Shown one piece after another: positions 5,567 through 12,742 of a stretch of DNA of 16,495 nucleotides (positions within the stretch are counted from its first letter, which is position 1; every line of letters begins with the position of its first letter). The notes below the pieces were generated by a model. That model saw nothing but the letters and a program-made list of their open reading frames with translations. It did no database searches and was not told where the DNA came from. This DNA is from a virus: the UHGV virus genome UHGV-0357595; one strand, given 5' to 3'. Position numbers and translations under genes: made by a program.

Positions 5567-6145
5567 ATGAGAGACATTGATGTAAGAAAGGCTGTGCATG
5601 CCAAGATTCTGAGAGATCATCATAAAGATCCTGACACCCTAATCATTGATGAGTTTACGATGAATCTAGGGGCTAGCAGAGCTGATATAGCAGTGATCAA
5701 TGGGCTTATACATGGTTATGAGTTGAAGAGCAAGAGTGATAACTTGCTCAGATTACCAGCGCAGGTGCAACATTACTCATCAGTGATGGATAAAGTAACG
5801 TTGGTTGTCTCTGATTGCCATCTTTATGATGCTTTAAGCATAGTTCCATCATGGTGGGGGATAAAGCAAGTTACGCAAGGTGCACGGCAAGGTATCCATT
5901 TAAAAACAATTCGAACTAGCAAGTTGAATCCACAAGTGGACAAACTTTCCTTAACAATGCTTCTTTGGAAAGATGAATTGCTTTCCCTATTAAGTGATGT
6001 AGGGGAGCTACAGAATTTGAAAAATAAACCTAAACGCGTCTTATGGTCAAAACTCGCCAATAGTATGGATGTTGGCGAGCTTCGTGAAGCTGTTCGAGTT
6101 AAACTTAAAGCCCGTAAAGAGTGGCGAGTTGCTCAACAACCTTAG
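5567..6145 (+). CDS. putative PD-(D/E)xK-type nuclease-like protein (192 aa); possibly sce7726-family
   Basis: ORF in the AT-rich island; motif RADIAVINGLIHGYELK (Asp followed about 12 residues later by Glu-x-Lys) resembles a PD-(D/E)xK core; weak Shine-Dalgarno; family name is a recollection, not a search result. Confidence 0.6.
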   Translation: MRDIDVRKAVHAKILRDHHKDPDTLIIDEFTMNLGASRADIAVINGLIHGYELKSKSDNLLRLPAQVQHYSSVMDKVTLVVSDCHLYDALSIVPSWWGIKQVTQGARQGIHLKTIRTSKLNPQVDKLSLTMLLWKDELLSLLSDVGELQNLKNKPKRVLWSKLANSMDVGELREAVRVKLKARKEWRVAQQP

Positions 6146-7202
6146 TTATGTGATGGTTTTGCCCAATCCTACGCCATACCTCTGGGCTACCAAATTTATA
6201 GTTACCAGAGGGATTGGCTTTGTAGGCTTGATACTCGTTTGCATAATATTCTATGTCTCTATCTCCCGCACAGAATGTAGGCCCTGAATATTCTCGATGA
6301 GCAAGAATATCCTCACTATGTTTACCATATTGTTCATAACCAAAGCGATTAGCTACTCTTCCTCGAAATACCCAAAAGTCATTATCTCCAGAGTATCTGA
6401 CGCTGGCAGATACGCTAGGGAATCGCGTCGAAAGCCTATTAAAGTCGGGGTGCTGTACTCCATAATCACTATAAATCACATTTCTGGCAAGTTCTTTTCT
6501 ATTCATTAAACTCTGCCATAAAATCCACTCGATTCGAGGTTGAGAATATAGACCAACAGAAATATCACTGAGATCTGTAGGAAATGAACCCCCAGAAAGA
6601 ATCACTTTTCTGTATTCATTGAGGTGCGCCAGATTGTTTATCAATCCCATTGCCAACGTATATAGTTCGCCGGAATTAAGTTTATCCTCGGTTAACTCAT
6701 CTCTTAAGTCAATAATTATATCAATATTTGATAAAGGAATTCCCAGATGATTAATGTAATGCGTTATTAATTGTGGGTTAACCAGATCTAACGTGGTTAA
6801 TCTCAAGCATATTTCATTCTGCATTAATTCATCAATCGCTCTTTTATAGTTAGATGGGCGAGTTGGTGAACTGACAGGAATAACTCTTATCCCCATATCT
6901 CTAACTTGATGAACCGCATTTATTATAGGGTAATGATCTTCAGGAGAAATAAAATGCTCTTCAATTAATAATCCATCAATATAAACACCTTGCATATCTG
7001 AGCAAGATTTTGAGACTTTCTTTCCGAACTCTATAAGAGTCTCGTTATAACTCTTTAAGGCAATACCTGAATCAGGGTCAATTGGCACTGGTTCAATTTC
7101 GAGTAATGGCAAAATTTTTGATTTCTTTTCAATGGATAGCTGCGATAAAGCTGATAACTCAGAACGTTTCGCTTTCAGAATAGGAATATATGAAATTGTC
7201 AT
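6105..7202 (-). CDS. hypothetical protein (365 aa), partner of the putative nuclease; possibly beta/sce7725-family
   Basis: Long minus-strand ORF in AT-rich DNA; start ATG at 7202 with AAGGT upstream; N-terminus MTISYIPILKAKRSELSAL; convergent with the 192-aa gene and overlapping it by 41 bp at the 3' ends. Confidence 0.7.
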   Translation of the reverse strand: MTISYIPILKAKRSELSALSQLSIEKKSKILPLLEIEPVPIDPDSGIALKSYNETLIEFGKKVSKSCSDMQGVYIDGLLIEEHFISPEDHYPIINAVHQVRDMGIRVIPVSSPTRPSNYKRAIDELMQNEICLRLTTLDLVNPQLITHYINHLGIPLSNIDIIIDLRDELTEDKLNSGELYTLAMGLINNLAHLNEYRKVILSGGSFPTDLSDISVGLYSQPRIEWILWQSLMNRKELARNVIYSDYGVQHPDFNRLSTRFPSVSASVRYSGDNDFWVFRGRVANRFGYEQYGKHSEDILAHREYSGPTFCAGDRDIEYYANEYQAYKANPSGNYKFGSPEVWRRIGQNHHITKVVEQLATLYGL

Positions 7203-7373: not shown

Positions 7374-7644
7374 TATCAGTCTTTCTTCCATGATGAATGC
7401 TAATGCCATTTGATTTGTTGAGGTGAAAACTGTTAAAAATCAAAACGATGTAATTGAAATGAACGTTCGGTAGCATTCACGCTTTAAATGTTTCTTTTGT
7501 GCTGATTGGATGAATTTTGGTCACTTATGATGAGAGATGTTGCAGGAAAAGAAGTTGGCATTGATCTATTGGATAGTTAGAATTGCTGCGGGTGCTTGAG
7601 GCTATCTGCCTCAGGCATGAACACCAAAAGGCAGATAGAGAAAA

Positions 7645-7711
7645 GCCCCAGTTAACATTACGCGTCCGGCAAGACGCTTAACATTAATCTGAGGCCAATT
7701 TCATGCTTTGC
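7645..7711 (-). ncRNA. candidate Sok-like antisense RNA of the hok locus
   Basis: Minus-strand promoter-like elements TTGCCT (complement of 7741-7746) and TAACCT (complement of 7718-7723), antisense to the hok leader; 3' end not resolved; placed by analogy with hok/sok loci. Confidence 0.3.
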
Positions 7712-7759
7712 ACATGTAGGTTAGCCTCTTACGTGCCGAAAGGCAAGGAGAAGCAGGCT

Positions 7760-7915
7760 ATGAAGCAGCAAAAGGCGATGTTAATCGCCCTGATCGTCAT
7801 CTGTTTAACCGTCATTGTGACGGCGCTGGTAACGAGGAAAGACCTCTGCGAGGTACGAATCCGAACCGGCCAGACGGAGGTCGCTGTCTTCACAGCTTAC
7901 GAACCTGAGGAGTAA
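7760..7915 (+). CDS. hok: Hok/Gef-family type I toxin (51 aa)
   Basis: Translation MKQQKAMLIALIVICLTVIVTALVTRKDLCEVRIRTGQTEVAVFTAYEPEE matches the Hok/Gef family (HokD/RelF-like as recalled); single transmembrane helix; an in-frame upstream ATG at 7703 would extend the frame to 70 codons. Confidence 0.85.
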   Translation: MKQQKAMLIALIVICLTVIVTALVTRKDLCEVRIRTGQTEVAVFTAYEPEE

Positions 7916-8474: not shown

Positions 8475-9074
8475 ATGGCGCATATACAACTGGTCAAACA
8501 AACCTCTTCTGGATTACTTCTCCCGGCGACGCCGGAGAGTTGCGATTTTTTGCATCAAATCAAAATAGGTGAGTGGATACACGCGGACTTTAAGCGAGTG
8601 CGTAACTACGCGTTCCACAAGCGTTTTTTCAAACTCCTGCAACTGGGATTCGATTACTGGACTCCGAACGGTGGGGCGATCACGCCTCGCGAACGAGAAC
8701 TGGTGTCCGGTTTCGTTGATTTCCTGTGCGAATCAGTAGGTCGGGAACATACGCCAGCCCTGAGTGATGCCGCAGAGCAATACCTTAACACCGTTGCGAC
8801 TTGCAGAACCCGGGATACGGCCTTACTCAAGTCCTTTGACGCTTTTCGCGAATGGGTAACCATTCAGGCCGGATTTTACACCGAACATTTTTATCCGGAC
8901 GGTAGTCGTGGGCGCAGGGCAAAATCTATCGCATTTGCGAACATGGACGAAACCGAGTTTCAGCAGGTTTATAAATCTGTACTGAATGTGCTGTGGAACT
9001 GGATCCTGTTCCGTAAATTTTCCTCTCCGGAGGAAGTCGAAAATGTGGCCGCGCAGTTACTGGAGTTTGCGTAA
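8475..9074 (+). CDS. nin-region protein (possibly DUF1367-like)
   Basis: 199-aa ORF with GGAG upstream; sits between the replication module and Q as nin-region genes do; family is a tentative recollection. Confidence 0.6.
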   Translation: MAHIQLVKQTSSGLLLPATPESCDFLHQIKIGEWIHADFKRVRNYAFHKRFFKLLQLGFDYWTPNGGAITPRERELVSGFVDFLCESVGREHTPALSDAAEQYLNTVATCRTRDTALLKSFDAFREWVTIQAGFYTEHFYPDGSRGRRAKSIAFANMDETEFQQVYKSVLNVLWNWILFRKFSSPEEVENVAAQLLEFA

Positions 9075-9364
9075 TGGTGGATTTACGTAAAGCGGCTCGG
9101 GGGCAGATGTGCACCGTCAGAATTCCTGGCTACTGCAATCACAATCCCGAAACATCTGTGCTGGCGCATTACAGGCTGGCGGGGACGTGCGGAACAGCGA
9201 CAAAACCACACGATATGCAGGCAGCGATTGCCTGTAGCTCATGCCACGATTTAATCGACGGGCGGGTAAAAACCAGCGATTACACCAAAGAAGAATTACG
9301 CCTGATGCATGCAGAAGGTGTTTTTCGCACACAAGAAATCTGGAGAAAGGAAGGTTATTTATGA
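9074..9364 (+). CDS. Cys-rich nin-region protein (YbcO / DUF1364-like)
   Basis: 96-aa ORF whose start overlaps the upstream stop (TAATG); cysteine cluster (CNHNPETS ... CGT ... CSSCHD); resembles the DLP12 YbcO family as recalled. Confidence 0.55.
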   Translation: MVDLRKAARGQMCTVRIPGYCNHNPETSVLAHYRLAGTCGTATKPHDMQAAIACSSCHDLIDGRVKTSDYTKEELRLMHAEGVFRTQEIWRKEGYL

Positions 9365-9915
9365 TTTACCCAACAAATACAGGCAAAAGCGGGGAACACC
9401 TTCGTCTCACCACGCTGGAAAGTGTCTGGATTCAGGGAAAACTGCGCATGTGGGGGCGCTGGTCGTATATTGGCGGCGGTAAGACGGGAAATATGTTTAA
9501 CCAGTTGCTGACCTCTAAAAAGCTAACAAAAACGGCAATTAATGAGGCGCTCCGGAGGATGAAAAAAGCAGGTCTGGACAAACCTGAACTTGAGGCTTTT
9601 TTGCGGGATATGATCAACGGCAAGCAAAAAAGCTGGCTGGTGCATTGTACTGATGCAGAGGCGTTATGCATTGATCGGGTGATTAGTGAAGTGCTGGCAG
9701 AACACCCAGGATTGATTTGTATCCTCCGGCAAAGATATGAAGGGCGGGGGATGAGTAAGCGCAAAATGGCTGAATTGCTAAATGATGCACACCCTGAGTG
9801 GTGTTTTCGGACGTGCTGCAGTCGGGTAGATGTATGGCTAAATCTTGCTGAATATATGCTCTATCTGCCGATGCGTGATGCATTCTCTTCCGGGTATTTA
9901 AAAACTGTCTGTTGA
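9361..9915 (+). CDS. Q-like late antiterminator (putative)
   Basis: 184-aa ORF starting at ATG 9361 (overlaps the upstream stop, ATGA); its stop is embedded in a strong promoter followed by a terminator, and the lysis and packaging genes lie downstream; call rests mainly on position. Confidence 0.5.
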   Translation: MIYPTNTGKSGEHLRLTTLESVWIQGKLRMWGRWSYIGGGKTGNMFNQLLTSKKLTKTAINEALRRMKKAGLDKPELEAFLRDMINGKQKSWLVHCTDAEALCIDRVISEVLAEHPGLICILRQRYEGRGMSKRKMAELLNDAHPEWCFRTCCSRVDVWLNLAEYMLYLPMRDAFSSGYLKTVC

Positions 9916-9941
9916 CTCAATCTGTTATCCGGGGCTATATT
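9912..9941 (+). promoter_or_regulatory. PR'-like late promoter
   Basis: -35 TTGACT (9912-9917), 18-bp spacer, -10 TATATT (9936-9941); overlaps the stop codon of the Q-like gene. Confidence 0.55.
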
Positions 9942-10003
9942 CCTCACGCGCCAGCAAAATCTGGCGTCGGGATTAGGAACCCCGGATAGAGACCGCGACA
10001 GAC

Positions 10004-10025
10004 ACACGCCGCGAGCGTGTTTTTT
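10004..10025 (+). terminator. tR'-like rho-independent terminator
   Basis: Stem ACACGC (10004-10009) / GCGTGT (10015-10020) followed by TTTTT (10021-10025); about 60-70 nt downstream of the PR'-like promoter. Confidence 0.6.
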
Positions 10026-10188
10026 ATTGTCGTATGCACGCGCACATCTGAATTATGGTGGGGCGTATGGGGGAGCTGAAAAGCTCGCCGGTTGGTTTCC
10101 CGGTAGTTCCTAACCCTGTACGTCTCACCACCCGATGATTAGGAACCTGACGGTGGTGATGGTTTAGAAACCACCAGAGGGCGTCATT

Positions 10189-10770
10189 ATGACAACTCAA
10201 ATTTCTGTTGAAACTCTCTCCCCGATCACCCATAACCAGATTCCTGTTATTACCACCGAACTTTTGGCGCAGTTGTACGGTGCTGAAGTTAAGAACATTC
10301 AAAATAACTACGCCAGAAATGCTGAGCGCTTTATTGAAGGAAAGCATTTTTTCAAAGTGGCTGGCGATGCCCTGAAAAATTTGCGGGTAGCTTTAAACTA
10401 CTCACAAAATTTGCAACCATCTTTAAGAGGGTTACAAATTTCCCCGAAAGCCCGCTCCCTCATCCTCTGGACAGAACGCGGAGCAGCCCGTCATGCCAAA
10501 ATGCTCGAAACCGATCAGGCGTGGGATGTGTTCGAAAAGCTGGAAGACTGCTATTTCAGACAAAAGGATCCGTCAGCGCCAGTTTCATGCCAGAAAAGTT
10601 ACGACACGCGAGTTCTCTGTTATCAGCGAGGCGGTGTCACTGTTTCCACAATTCAGTTGCGGGATGATGATATTGTTATTTCCCTTGAGTCATGGCTGGA
10701 ACTGGCGAGAGCCAATGGTTGGTTTGTTGTTCGCAGAGATAAACTGGTGGAAAGGTTGATGCAGCTTTAA
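10189..10770 (+). CDS. ORF6N-domain protein (antirepressor-like)
   Basis: 193-aa ORF; N-terminal region with LAQLYG ... NYARNAERFIEGKHFFKV ... LWTERGAARHAKML ... AWDVFEKLEDCYF, which matches the ORF6N domain pattern as recalled; first gene after the tR'-like terminator. Confidence 0.65.
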   Translation: MTTQISVETLSPITHNQIPVITTELLAQLYGAEVKNIQNNYARNAERFIEGKHFFKVAGDALKNLRVALNYSQNLQPSLRGLQISPKARSLILWTERGAARHAKMLETDQAWDVFEKLEDCYFRQKDPSAPVSCQKSYDTRVLCYQRGGVTVSTIQLRDDDIVISLESWLELARANGWFVVRRDKLVERLMQL

Positions 10771-10865
10771 AAAAGTTCTTGCATTTTTGCACATAAACTG
10801 CTTCAATTCCGGTACGCTTCGCAAAGCTGTATCGCGAGGCGAATCAAGCGCATGAACTTTACCAG

Positions 10866-10893
10866 AACCCGCCATTGAGCGGGTTTTGTTGTT
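10866..10893 (+). terminator. rho-independent terminator after the ORF6N gene
   Basis: Stem AACCCGC (10866-10872) / GCGGGTT (10879-10885) with loop CATTGA, followed by a T-rich tract (TTGTTGTTT). Confidence 0.55.
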
Positions 10894-11003
10894 TCTGGTA
10901 CTGGCGAACCTGATGTTTCATTTCTGGAGCGCGATTCCTGGCGGAATACCTGGAATCGAGACATTCTGGTAAAATTGTTTTCAGTACAGGATGTGGAGGT
11001 GAG

Positions 11004-11573
11004 ATGAGAGAACTACCTAAAGATTATTTTTTAGGAGTAGATGATGAGCTCGTCGATTATCTTGAAAAACAAGGGGAAGAGACGATACGAGAGATTCATC
11101 TTTCTAACAAAACCAATGTTGAGAATGGATACAAACTTCTGAACATTCAGATTGTTGGAATTGGCTCATCTTTTTTATTGCTGACACAGAAAACTAATTT
11201 CGATTTTCTCACCGCTGGAATTACCACATTTACATTACTATGGACATGGTGCGCCATTTACTTGGTATGTACTGGTTTATCTGTGAAGGTTAGGGGCCTG
11301 ATCAATGCCCCTCCTGATCATCTATATCATGAAAAATATAAGGATATGGAGCCATCGAGCTTTAAAATATTCGCTGATGCAGGATATTTAGGACCTGATA
11401 AGTTATTGCCGCTTATACGAAGGTATCGCCTTGTTGACTTGAGTGATACAGCAAGAGAGTTACTGTTGGAAAATGAGAAAATCCGCACGAGTCTCGATAA
11501 AGCAAGGATGTATACCATCCTTGCTCCGGTAGCTGCGATGTTTATCTCGGCTGTTTTTTTATATGTTCAATGA
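11004..11573 (+). CDS. AT-rich membrane protein (moron; possible superinfection-exclusion or abortive-infection protein)
   Basis: 189-aa ORF; ATG at 11004 with GGAGG (10995-10999) upstream; hydrophobic segments IVGIGSSFLLL, ITTFTLLWTWCAIYLVCTGL and C-terminal ILAPVAAMFISAVFLYV; markedly AT-rich compared with neighbouring genes. Confidence 0.6.
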   Translation: MRELPKDYFLGVDDELVDYLEKQGEETIREIHLSNKTNVENGYKLLNIQIVGIGSSFLLLTQKTNFDFLTAGITTFTLLWTWCAIYLVCTGLSVKVRGLINAPPDHLYHEKYKDMEPSSFKIFADAGYLGPDKLLPLIRRYRLVDLSDTARELLLENEKIRTSLDKARMYTILAPVAAMFISAVFLYVQ

Positions 11574-11703
11574 CTGAGTCGGCAGAATCTCCAACAAAAA
11601 CACGACGTGTAGCAAAGTCTGCAGTACTTTGTGTTGGAGTTGGTTTTGGTGCCACGGGTTGCTGAGGTTTATTTTCACCTTGTGGCTTGTTTTTTTCAGA
11701 CAT
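11542..11703 (-). CDS. hypothetical small protein (53 aa), antisense-oriented within the late region
   Basis: Minus-strand ATG at 11703 with AGGA about 6 nt upstream; Pro/Gln-rich N-terminus; overlaps the 3' end of the membrane protein gene by 32 bp. Confidence 0.3.
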   Translation of the reverse strand: MSEKNKPQGENKPQQPVAPKPTPTQSTADFATRRVFVGDSADSVIEHIKKQPR

Positions 11704-11797
11704 AAAAATCCTCTTTGTTTGAATTGTTACTTTTGGCGATTTAACGATATCAAACACGAGTATATACCGCCAGAAGCTTAATCTGGCTCTCCATCTG

Positions 11798-11822
11798 GCC
11801 CCGGCATGTCCCGGGGCTTTTT
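11798..11822 (+). terminator. rho-independent terminator upstream of the holin gene
   Basis: Stem GCCCCGG (11798-11804) / CCGGGGC (11811-11817), loop CATGTC, followed by TTTTT (11818-11822). Confidence 0.6.
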
Positions 11823-11920
11823 CGTTGTTAGGCTCCGGAAACATCCTCGACTTCTTGTGAGCAAGCCTGAGAGCCTGAATCTTACACTTAGCACCATCCG
11901 AACTCTCGGAGGTGAGGCTT

Positions 11921-12262
11921 ATGAAAATGCACAATGCCCCTCATTCCTGGCCTGACTTACTGGAACTCTTACAAAGTTGGTGGCGTGGAGATACGCCGCT
12001 GGGCGCAGTGGTTATGTCAATTATTATGGCTGGTTTGCGCATTGCCTATTTTGGCGGTGGCGGCGGCTGGAAACGAAAAACGCTTGAGATTCTGCTTTGT
12101 GGTGCTCTGACGCTGACCTTTGCATCCGCGCTTGAGTATGTCGGATGGCCTAAATCACTTTCTGTTGCCATTGGTGGTGGGGTGGGGCTGATTGGTGTTG
12201 ATGCTATTCGTGGTGCGGCAATGAGGGTCATCGGTAACAAGTTCGGTGCCCATAAGGAGTAA
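11921..12262 (+). CDS. holin (class I-like) with dual-start motif
   Basis: ATG at 11921 with GGAGG (11908-11912) upstream; N-terminus MKM (with a further upstream in-frame GTG at 11912) resembles the holin/antiholin dual start of lambda S; Gly-rich hydrophobic segments; immediately upstream of the endolysin. Confidence 0.75.
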   Translation: MKMHNAPHSWPDLLELLQSWWRGDTPLGAVVMSIIMAGLRIAYFGGGGGWKRKTLEILLCGALTLTFASALEYVGWPKSLSVAIGGGVGLIGVDAIRGAAMRVIGNKFGAHKE

Positions 12263-12265
12263 TTA

Positions 12266-12742
12266 ATGCAGACACTGAATTCCCAGCGTAAAGCTTTCCT
12301 TGATATGGTTGCATGGTCAGAAGGAACAGATAACGGACGGCAGAAAACCAGAAATCACGGTTATGATGTTATTGTCGGTGGCGAACTGTTCACTGATTAC
12401 TCCGATCACCCCCGCAAACTTGTCACGCTAAATCCGAAACTCAAATCAACAGCCGCCGGACGTTACCAGCTTCTTTCTCGCTGGTGGGATGCCTACCGCA
12501 AGCAACTTGGCCTGAAAGATTTTTCCCCAGAAAGTCAGGATGCTGTAGCGCTGCAGCAGATTAAAGAGCGTGGTGCTTTACCGATGATTGACCGTGGCGA
12601 TATTCGTCAGGCAATCGACCGTTGCAGCAATATCTGGGCGTCGTTACCTGGTGCAGGTTACGGTCAGTATGAACATAGAATCGGTGATCTGATTTCCCGA
12701 TTTAAAGAAGCTGGTGGGGTGGTAAATGAAGCTGAGATATAA
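12266..12742 (+). CDS. R: endolysin, lambda R-like lytic transglycosylase
   Basis: 158-aa ORF; AAGGAG 6 nt upstream; translation (NSQRKAFLDMVAWSEGTDNGRQKTRNHGYDVIVGGELFTDYSDHPRKLV ...) closely matches lambda R as recalled. Confidence 0.9.
   Translation: MQTLNSQRKAFLDMVAWSEGTDNGRQKTRNHGYDVIVGGELFTDYSDHPRKLVTLNPKLKSTAAGRYQLLSRWWDAYRKQLGLKDFSPESQDAVALQQIKERGALPMIDRGDIRQAIDRCSNIWASLPGAGYGQYEHRIGDLISRFKEAGGVVNEAEI

Follow-up and report, generated by a model that had tools for sequence, protein, structure and literature searches.

The 16,495-nucleotide (nt) virus genome UHGV-0357595, referred to below in its full length as the window, is a Rac-like lambdoid prophage of Escherichia coli. Between its late activator gene Q and its holin gene S lies a gene for a 189-amino-acid (aa) membrane protein, which a first reading of the letters (the original prediction) took for an acquired cassette of a single gene, flanked by intrinsic terminators. 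We find that the unit is a conserved pair of genes, not one gene: the large gene is accompanied by a convergent 53-aa gene (11542-11703), which that first reading missed. Comparison of loci shows the pair to be an autonomous mobile cargo unit, or moron, that occupies at least five slots, counting the one between Q and the holin gene. We suggest, tentatively, that it could be a prophage abortive-infection or exclusion module in which a PycTM-like membrane effector is controlled by the small protein.

A conserved pair of convergent genes

The two genes and the start signal of the larger one are as follows.

11004-11573 (+): gene for the 189-aa inner-membrane protein, ATG start; putative effector
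10995-10999 (+): Shine-Dalgarno sequence GGAGG, 4 nt 5' of the ATG
11542-11703 (-): gene for a 53-aa basic protein rich in P, Q and K, MSEKNKPQ...DFATRRVFVGDSAD...KKQPR; 3' overlap of 32 nt with the large gene

The large gene is real, because its 104 homologues across Enterobacterales are nearly all exactly 189 aa long and an alignment of 37 sequences has 28 invariant residues. Its reading frame, Shine-Dalgarno sequence and topology, as originally proposed, were all borne out. Hydropathy places three hydrophobic segments at about residues 45-62, 68-92 and 169-189, and an AlphaFold2 model (37 homologues, predicted local distance difference test score 82.6) has helices at 14-62, 68-92 and 134-188, with the N-terminal and central helices continuing directly into membrane helices. 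Residues 1-44 are acidic (6 K+R, 11 D+E), and residues 93-168 are soluble with clusters of K and R. The layout is thus an acidic N-terminal helix, a transmembrane (TM) hairpin, a cytoplasmic helical region and a C-terminal TM helix, and from the predicted features about 120 residues would be cytoplasmic, with the N-terminus in and the C-terminus out. The membrane helices are moderately hydrophobic and rich in polar residues; together with the long cytoplasmic helices of the confident model, this would suit an effector-like protein.

For comparative purposes, loci that carry a large-gene relative were collected; the 85 of them comprise 38 distinct variants. The GC content of the 189-aa gene is 38.6% (34.7% at third codon positions), against 47.0% for the whole window and 46-52% for the adjacent genes, and the homologous large gene lies below its flanks in 37 of the 38 variants, by a mean of 7.8 points. 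The gene had been described as strongly AT-rich; the dip is systematic, but "strongly" was slightly generous.

A convergent open reading frame (ORF) of 47-68 codons, overlapping the large gene by 20-35 nt, is present in all 38 variants. In the window its full product, read from 11703 to 11542 on the minus strand, is MSEKNKPQGENKPQQPVAPKPTPTQSTADFATRRVFVGDSADSVIEHIKKQPR; it has a Shine-Dalgarno sequence of its own and matches PHROG 14506 at E 6e-33. The Prokaryotic Genome Annotation Pipeline annotates a 71-codon version of the gene. Across the variants the small protein has an N-terminal half rich in K, P and Q, a core of the form DF..R.[FLIM]VG[DN]SA[DE] and a basic tail, the motif extending to ..KK.K. 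In the part outside the overlap, the ratio of nonsynonymous to synonymous substitution rates (dN/dS) is 0.03-0.18 (Nei-Gojobori, 13 informative pairs), and the VGDSA codons can be seen by eye to differ at third positions. Because of this low dN/dS and these third-position changes, the small ORF is, judged by its substitution pattern, a protein-coding gene under purifying selection. The linkage also extends beyond close relatives: in prophages of Gallibacterium and others of Pasteurellaceae type, where the large protein has homologues of 25-35% identity, a convergent ORF of 45-53 codons once more overlaps the large gene, with an MSNQK start and a composition rich in P, Q and K.

Mobility of the pair and the bounds of its slot

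The features that define the slot, its cargo and the candidate expression signals are, in order of position:

10779-10888 (+): late-promoter-like leader module, part of the left flank of the slot and outside the cargo
10779-10784 (+): candidate -35 element TTGCAT, as read from the sequence
10802-10807 (+): candidate -10 element TTCAAT, likewise
10863-10888 (+): upstream intrinsic terminator, tR'-like; 10-bp stem, -16.1 kcal/mol, z -4.2, equalled by 0 of 200 shuffles, T run after it
about 10899-11712: exchanged cargo (blastn against E. coli strain 12089), with both genes and the -10-like element of the large gene
10967-10975 (+): TGGTAAAAT, candidate extended -10 element of the 189-aa gene, with TAAAAT conserved
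11744-11752 (-): TGATATCGT, candidate extended -10 element of the small gene, in the conserved right flank
11770-11786: inverted repeat CCAGA-N7-TCTGG, CCAGAAGCTTAATCTGG, at the -35 position of the candidate promoter of the small gene and directly 5' of the downstream terminator
11797-11818 (+): downstream intrinsic terminator, upstream of holin S; 8-bp stem with 7 GC pairs, -16.4 kcal/mol, z -2.9, equalled by 1 of 200 shuffles, T run after it

In E. coli strain 12089, blastn matches the window at 10700-10898 (97% identity) and at 11713-12000 (95%), and the cargo inside is unrelated. Flanks this similar around an unrelated interior set the bounds of the exchanged cargo at about 10899-11712. 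The pair occupies the Q-to-holin slot in E. coli, Morganella, Pantoea and Serratia, where it lies behind a late activator and a terminator and ahead of lysis genes. It is also found after the tail tube, gpG and gpT genes, beside an Arc/anti-repressor moron (locus L087 of our collection), after a DUF6246 gene and before the tape-measure gene (L070 and L109), downstream of an S24-type repressor in the cI-adjacent immunity region (L100 and L104), and at the replication/terminase boundary of two different Achromobacter phages; a further variant lies in the early region. With alternative cargo between flanks of 95-97% identity and at least four other slots, the view of an acquired cassette in the late operon has held up well. 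The unit is replaced between conserved genes, its base composition deviates and a terminator follows it, as is typical of a moron, the terminator here lying in the conserved flank. The pair is carried by 223 of 5426 complete E. coli genomes (about 4%).

The strain 12089 cargo (L115 1629-2123) consists of a 76-aa ORF on the plus strand and a convergent 92-aa ORF on the minus strand with a 15-nt overlap, and neither protein matches Pfam. Homologues of the 76-aa protein also occur 3' of the cassette in Serratia (L007 6829-7053).

One alternative is that the large protein, as product of the first gene of the late operon, is a lysis accessory that tunes holin triggering in the manner of an antiholin or pro-holin. 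Its position would suit such a role, since it is encoded 340-1400 nt upstream of a holin or endolysin gene, and downstream of Q and tR', in most Enterobacterales variants, and co-transcription with the lysis genes would be expected after Q antitermination. However, the adjoining lysis genes are of different families: the holins are of the Phage_holin_3_1 or 2_1 family or unassigned, and the endolysins are GH24, GH19, GH108-like and M15-like, the last two recognized from sequence motifs only. The activators of those loci differ as well (DUF1133 Q, PF06530 Q, or a PF03589 antiterminator with Ogr). In the tail, immunity and early regions the pair is far from lysis genes, sister prophages have unrelated cargo in the same slot, and among 47 proteins a single match to a holin or antiholin family was seen, at E 0.14. 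Several slots and a GC content below that of the flanks mark the pair as autonomous cargo and make a dedicated lysis function unlikely; we consider this alternative highly improbable, and identity with a lysis accessory was rejected because the pair occurs in several slots and beside holins of differing families. A structural or lysis-accessory homologue, which would have spoken against the original prediction, was looked for and was not found.

Overall, that prediction is supported in part. It had treated the two terminators as flanks of the gene's own cassette. Both exist and are stable, but neither is a boundary of the cassette. The upstream terminator belongs to the late leader, because the same stretch follows Q genes, precedes varied cargo and is paralogous to an isrK-like module. 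Positions 10780-10890 are present in 1176 of the 5426 complete E. coli genomes, as against 223 for the whole query; in an O157:H7 prophage the same leader stands directly 3' of a DUF1133 Q gene and ahead of tRNA-Ile, tRNA-Arg, TerB and a SASA esterase, which the holin gene follows, and in strain 13E0780 it stands ahead of tRNA and other genes. The leader at 10779-10888 aligns with the isrK-like module at 9915-10025 with 57 invariant columns. By these comparisons, 10779-10888 is a late leader with a tR'-type terminator and an expected target of Q antitermination, not a boundary brought by the gene. In 32 of the 38 variants the upstream terminator lies 33-185 nt 5' of the ATG, and Rfam has no known RNA in 10700-11950. 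Two promoter-leader-terminator modules stand in tandem here; elsewhere in E. coli prophages the second one is found directly 3' of the Q gene.

The downstream terminator lies in the right flank, which is conserved and also contains the inverted repeat and the minus-strand TGATATCGT; the terminator is identical in a locus (L086) where the cassette beside it has only 58% identity. A scan of 10000-12500 gave 3 terminator-like sites against 2.6 expected, an ordinary number, and for both terminators the weight rests on stability, position and conservation, not on number. The terminators bracket the slot, not the gene.

The -10-like elements of both genes are, on motif conservation, candidate promoters only. 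TAAAAT occurs within 60 nt 5' of the large-gene ATG in 29 of the 38 variants, in 28 of them at -40 to -34 and in one at -8, where shuffled sequences would give 1.3, and TGnTAYnGT occurs 5' of the small gene in 32 of them against 0.5 expected, with a conserved TAAATCGCCAAAAGTAAC coming next; the variants share ancestry, so these counts overstate independence. No good -35 element is visible near TGGTAAAAT, and a generic promoter scan was empty. The conserved TAAAAT would be compatible with expression of the large gene in the lysogen. In strain 12089 the same TGATATCGT element precedes a different minus-strand gene, the 92-aa ORF, and apparently drives it. The inverted repeat may be an operator or an (RNA) hairpin: CCAG-N6-14-CTGG is found in 17 of the 38 variants, and Morganella has the symmetric change CCAGT...ACTGG.

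Tight linkage, a putative membrane toxin and a convergent 3' overlap such as some type I systems have could also suggest a selfish addiction module, in which a membrane toxin and a labile small antidote, an antisense RNA or both would keep the prophage or the cassette in place with no dedicated anti-phage role. The pair moves together between slots, and the same prophage carries hok/sok. Linkage holds in all 38 variants and in the distant homologues; the genes are convergent, not co-transcribed, and the library searches gave no match to a toxin-antitoxin family. At 189 aa the large protein is far above the size of type I toxins, and protein-level purifying selection on the small ORF means that RNA alone is not the antidote. 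Moreover, nearly every occurrence of the pair is in phage or prophage DNA, at slots classic for exclusion genes or morons, the single exception being a marginal homologue (P0196) described below. An addiction role thus seems distinctly unlikely. The narrower version of it, a type I toxin with an antisense RNA alone, was ruled out by the selection on the small protein.

Remote similarity to membrane effectors and proposed function

The 189-aa protein matches PHROG 11870 (E 6e-108), a family without assigned function, and a profile search gathered about 100 clusters of relatives (at 50% identity) of 160-200 aa. One relative, P0130, matches the PADLOC profile PDLC02364 for PycTM at E 1.5e-8 through residues 17-182 (166 residues) and profile positions 7-152 of 160; it also matches the CBASS profile "Effector 2TM" PDLC00700 at E 4e-5 through residues 37-180, and the Pfam PycTM model at 0.016, below the cut-off. 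PycTM has been described as a pore-forming abortive-infection effector of Pycsar that disrupts the membrane upon activation by cyclic pyrimidines (PMC11224242). The P0130 subfamily and that of the 189-aa protein are unambiguously homologous by profile comparison (hhalign probability 100%, E 7e-43 over 170 columns; hmmsearch E 2e-21). Weaker matches are those of P0114 to the 2TM profile PDLC00668 (0.004) and of P0127 to PycTM (0.007-0.01). Among the 93 members scanned, PycTM and 2TM were the only recurring PADLOC families, with weak PycTM matches in about 5 of the 93. Below threshold, Pfam gave YLATT in 3 of 37 proteins (best 0.054), SLATT_3 in 1 of 37 (0.13), 8xMP in 4 of 37 (0.024), and PycTM; no match to the SLATT clan (CL0676) exceeded its gathering score. 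When P0130 or a 76-sequence profile served as the seed, searches returned family members alone and no true PycTM proteins. We lean towards true homology to the PycTM/2TM effectors as the probable explanation. The original prediction had been unable to assign the protein to any family, which is still so for Pfam, NCBIfam, PADLOC and PDB, and is amended by the PHROG match and by this remote, transitive similarity. Its suggestion of a superinfection-exclusion or abortive-infection role for the 189-aa protein is plausible, with some support from the likeness to PycTM and 2TM.

Alternatively, the protein could have another conserved role in the membrane of the lysogen, for example in lysogenic conversion of the envelope, with the PycTM similarity a compositional artefact. 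Fold searches returned generic helical bundles only and were uninformative; the significant similarity is confined to one member, and the 189-aa protein itself has no direct match to a defence model. An artefact would have to account, however, for a match that is nearly full-length in both protein and model, for the agreement of independent 2TM models and for the recurrence of just these two families. We regard this alternative as unlikely.

A further possibility is superinfection exclusion without cell death, in which the membrane protein would block genome entry in the manner of HK97 gp15, T4 Imm or P22 SieA, and the small protein would be an accessory or regulator. An inner-membrane protein encoded by a prophage moron is what this alternative calls for; some relatives lie exactly in the HK97 gp15 slot, and elements resembling promoters of the genes' own are conserved. 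The only significant remote similarity is nonetheless to pore-type effectors, the protein has no similarity to P22 SieA (hhalign probability 0.3%), and HK97 gp15 has 62 aa. A dedicated, tightly linked small partner would also make more sense for keeping a dangerous activity in check than for a passive block. Simple entry exclusion seems rather unlikely to us.

The effector reading that we tentatively prefer would work as follows. The 189-aa product would be an N-in, three-helix inner-membrane protein of a prophage branch distantly related to the stand-alone PycTM/2TM effectors. Once released, it would form oligomers and make the inner membrane permeable or depolarise it, and the development of a superinfecting phage would be aborted. 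The 53-aa basic, low-complexity protein would replace the cyclase as the means of control, most likely as an inhibitor resembling an antitoxin, and antisense transcription through the 3' overlap could add a second layer. In the lysogen, the two products would be kept in safe proportion by the promoter of the small gene and a weak one of the large gene (TGGTAAAAT). Lambdoid Q-modified polymerase reads through terminators. After induction, such polymerase coming from the late leader would pass both terminators, transcribe the large gene in excess and run into transcription of the convergent small gene, disturbing it.

Several points weigh against this reading. Neither the 189-aa protein nor its profile matches Pfam, NCBIfam, PADLOC or PDB sequences; the cut-offs for the protein were E up to 1 for Pfam and PADLOC, and for PADLOC also up to 10, and the PycTM profiles concerned were Pfam PF18967 and PADLOC PDLC02363/4. 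The link to PycTM is transitive, reaching significance in just one member, and spurious profile matches arise easily with TM-rich proteins. In the 18 prophage loci whose neighbours were annotated with Pfam, the pair adjoins neither a cyclase nor a CD-NTase, nor any other known defence partner. We can only infer that the small protein would be an inhibitor, and toxin-antitoxin pairs are not typically convergent. In the variants from Morganella and Pantoea, terminator and ATG are only 33-37 nt apart and TAAAAT is missing, and expression in the lysogen is therefore not assured in every variant. Lastly, the literature yielded no expression or phenotype data for the family; indeed no publication on it was found in the searchable literature, one relevant screen of E. 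coli prophage defences being outside that coverage.

The sole non-phage context seen is in metagenome contigs (L102/L103 2930-4747), where a Guanylate_cyc+TPR gene with a class III cyclase domain stands two genes upstream of P0196, a 181-aa marginal homologue (E 5e-4).

The broadest form of the proposal would be a widespread, undescribed prophage immunity module: a pore-forming effector of PycTM/SLATT type, uncoupled from cyclic-nucleotide signalling and gated by a disordered, antisense-encoded protein of roughly 50 aa, in which infection, or induction with its convergent late transcription, would shift the balance towards membrane collapse, and which would hop as a unit from one canonical moron slot to another in the temperate phages of Enterobacterales, Pasteurellaceae and Burkholderiales. 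We hold this form to be doubtful. If true, it would mean signalling-independent control of SLATT/PycTM-type effectors, with a small protein and an antisense partner in place of a cyclase, and it would assign a role to two genes now labelled hypothetical, which about 4% of complete E. coli genomes and the prophages of many Enterobacterales carry. That one cargo unit travels among the Q-to-S, gpT-to-tape-measure and cI-adjacent slots, all classic for morons, can help to find further prophage defence cargo by position. Whatever the function, recognition of the convergent small gene amends both the current annotation and the one-gene picture of the original prediction, and the two terminators are better seen as belonging to the slot.

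Prophage setting and comparison with known systems

A region near-identical to the window is present in strain CFS3292, where recE/kil/ydaT/ydaV and head genes flank it, and also in induced phages, e.g., vB_EcoS-666R9. The genes and RNAs around the cargo are:

8475-9074: NinB-like gene
between the NinB-like gene and Q: DUF1364/HNH gene
9361-9915: DUF1133-type Q
9948-10025: isrK-like leader with terminator (Rfam, 69 bits)
10051-10135: C4 antisense RNA (67 bits)
10189-10770: ORF6N anti-repressor gene, upstream of the second leader
11912-12262: holin S, 3' of the cargo, followed by GH24 endolysin, Rz and TerS

The C4 antisense RNA has a1/b1 target sites at 9935-9988, and the isrK-like RNA, the C4 RNA and the ORF6N anti-repressor together form an RNA switch of the immI/Gifsy-1 type (antQ-isrK-orf45-anrP-isrJ) between Q and the late leader. 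Elsewhere in the window there is a hok/sok type I toxin-antitoxin locus, with sok RNA at 7590-7765 (Rfam, 120 bits) and a hokD-like ORF ending at 7915. A second AT-rich island (34-40% GC) holds another convergent overlapping pair, 5567-6145 (+) and 6105-7202 (-). Its first product is an sce7726-family protein (NCBIfam 1.7e-56; PADLOC "cll" 2e-28) and its second, of 365 aa, is PD-Lambda-2_C-like ("beta family"; PADLOC 2e-41); by these matches that pair is a probable defence system.

In Gifsy-1 the corresponding layout is antQ-isrK-orf45-anrP-isrJ (PMC4825925). The stretch 5' of the cargo resembles that locus in having a DUF1133 Q, an isrK-like RNA, an ORF6N anti-repressor and a second leader with terminator at the position of isrJ; the likeness covers the flank only and does not include the cassette, and the second leader has no Rfam match to isrJ. 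The slot itself is a familiar one. Between Q-pR'-tR' and S, lambdoid prophages hold stx, tRNAs and the nanS-p esterase gene. Like those cargoes, the pair lies directly behind the terminator of the late leader and before the holin gene, where a boost by Q on induction is expected; unlike them, it has candidate promoters of its own and an antisense partner.

Three known exclusion proteins were considered as identities for the 189-aa protein and rejected: lambda SieB (hhalign probability 0.1%, no Pfam SieB match), P22 SieA (by its hhalign probability, given above) and HK97 gp15 (by size).

SieB of lambda and P22 is nevertheless alike in kind, being a prophage protein for abortive exclusion, about 184-192 aa long and likewise equipped with hydrophobic helices, and lambda sieB is convergent with N and abuts it; distant relatives of the 189-aa protein lie in the same immunity/early-left region. 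Reportedly a small protein, Esc, and the sas antisense RNA protect the phage that carries sieB from this exclusion. The two systems have no sequence relationship, however, and Esc is made in frame from within sieB, while the partner here has a gene of its own on the opposite strand.

HK97 gp15 is the textbook membrane-protein moron, and several relatives of the 189-aa protein occupy its slot, which has the tail assembly chaperone genes on one side and the tape-measure gene on the other. It is said to block DNA entry without forming a pore. As the product of a single 62-aa gene it is set apart by size, too small to be the same kind of protein.

The PycTM and 2TM effectors are the closest comparison. 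They too are small (about 160-185 aa), all-helical inner-membrane proteins, P0130 matches their profiles over nearly the full length, and the expected output would in both cases be an impairment of the membrane that aborts infection. In contrast, the 189-aa protein is without a direct match to them, has a third, C-terminal TM helix and lacks an adjoining cyclase or CD-NTase, its partner being a convergent gene of roughly 50 aa; and the family described here resides in prophage moron slots, not in defence islands.

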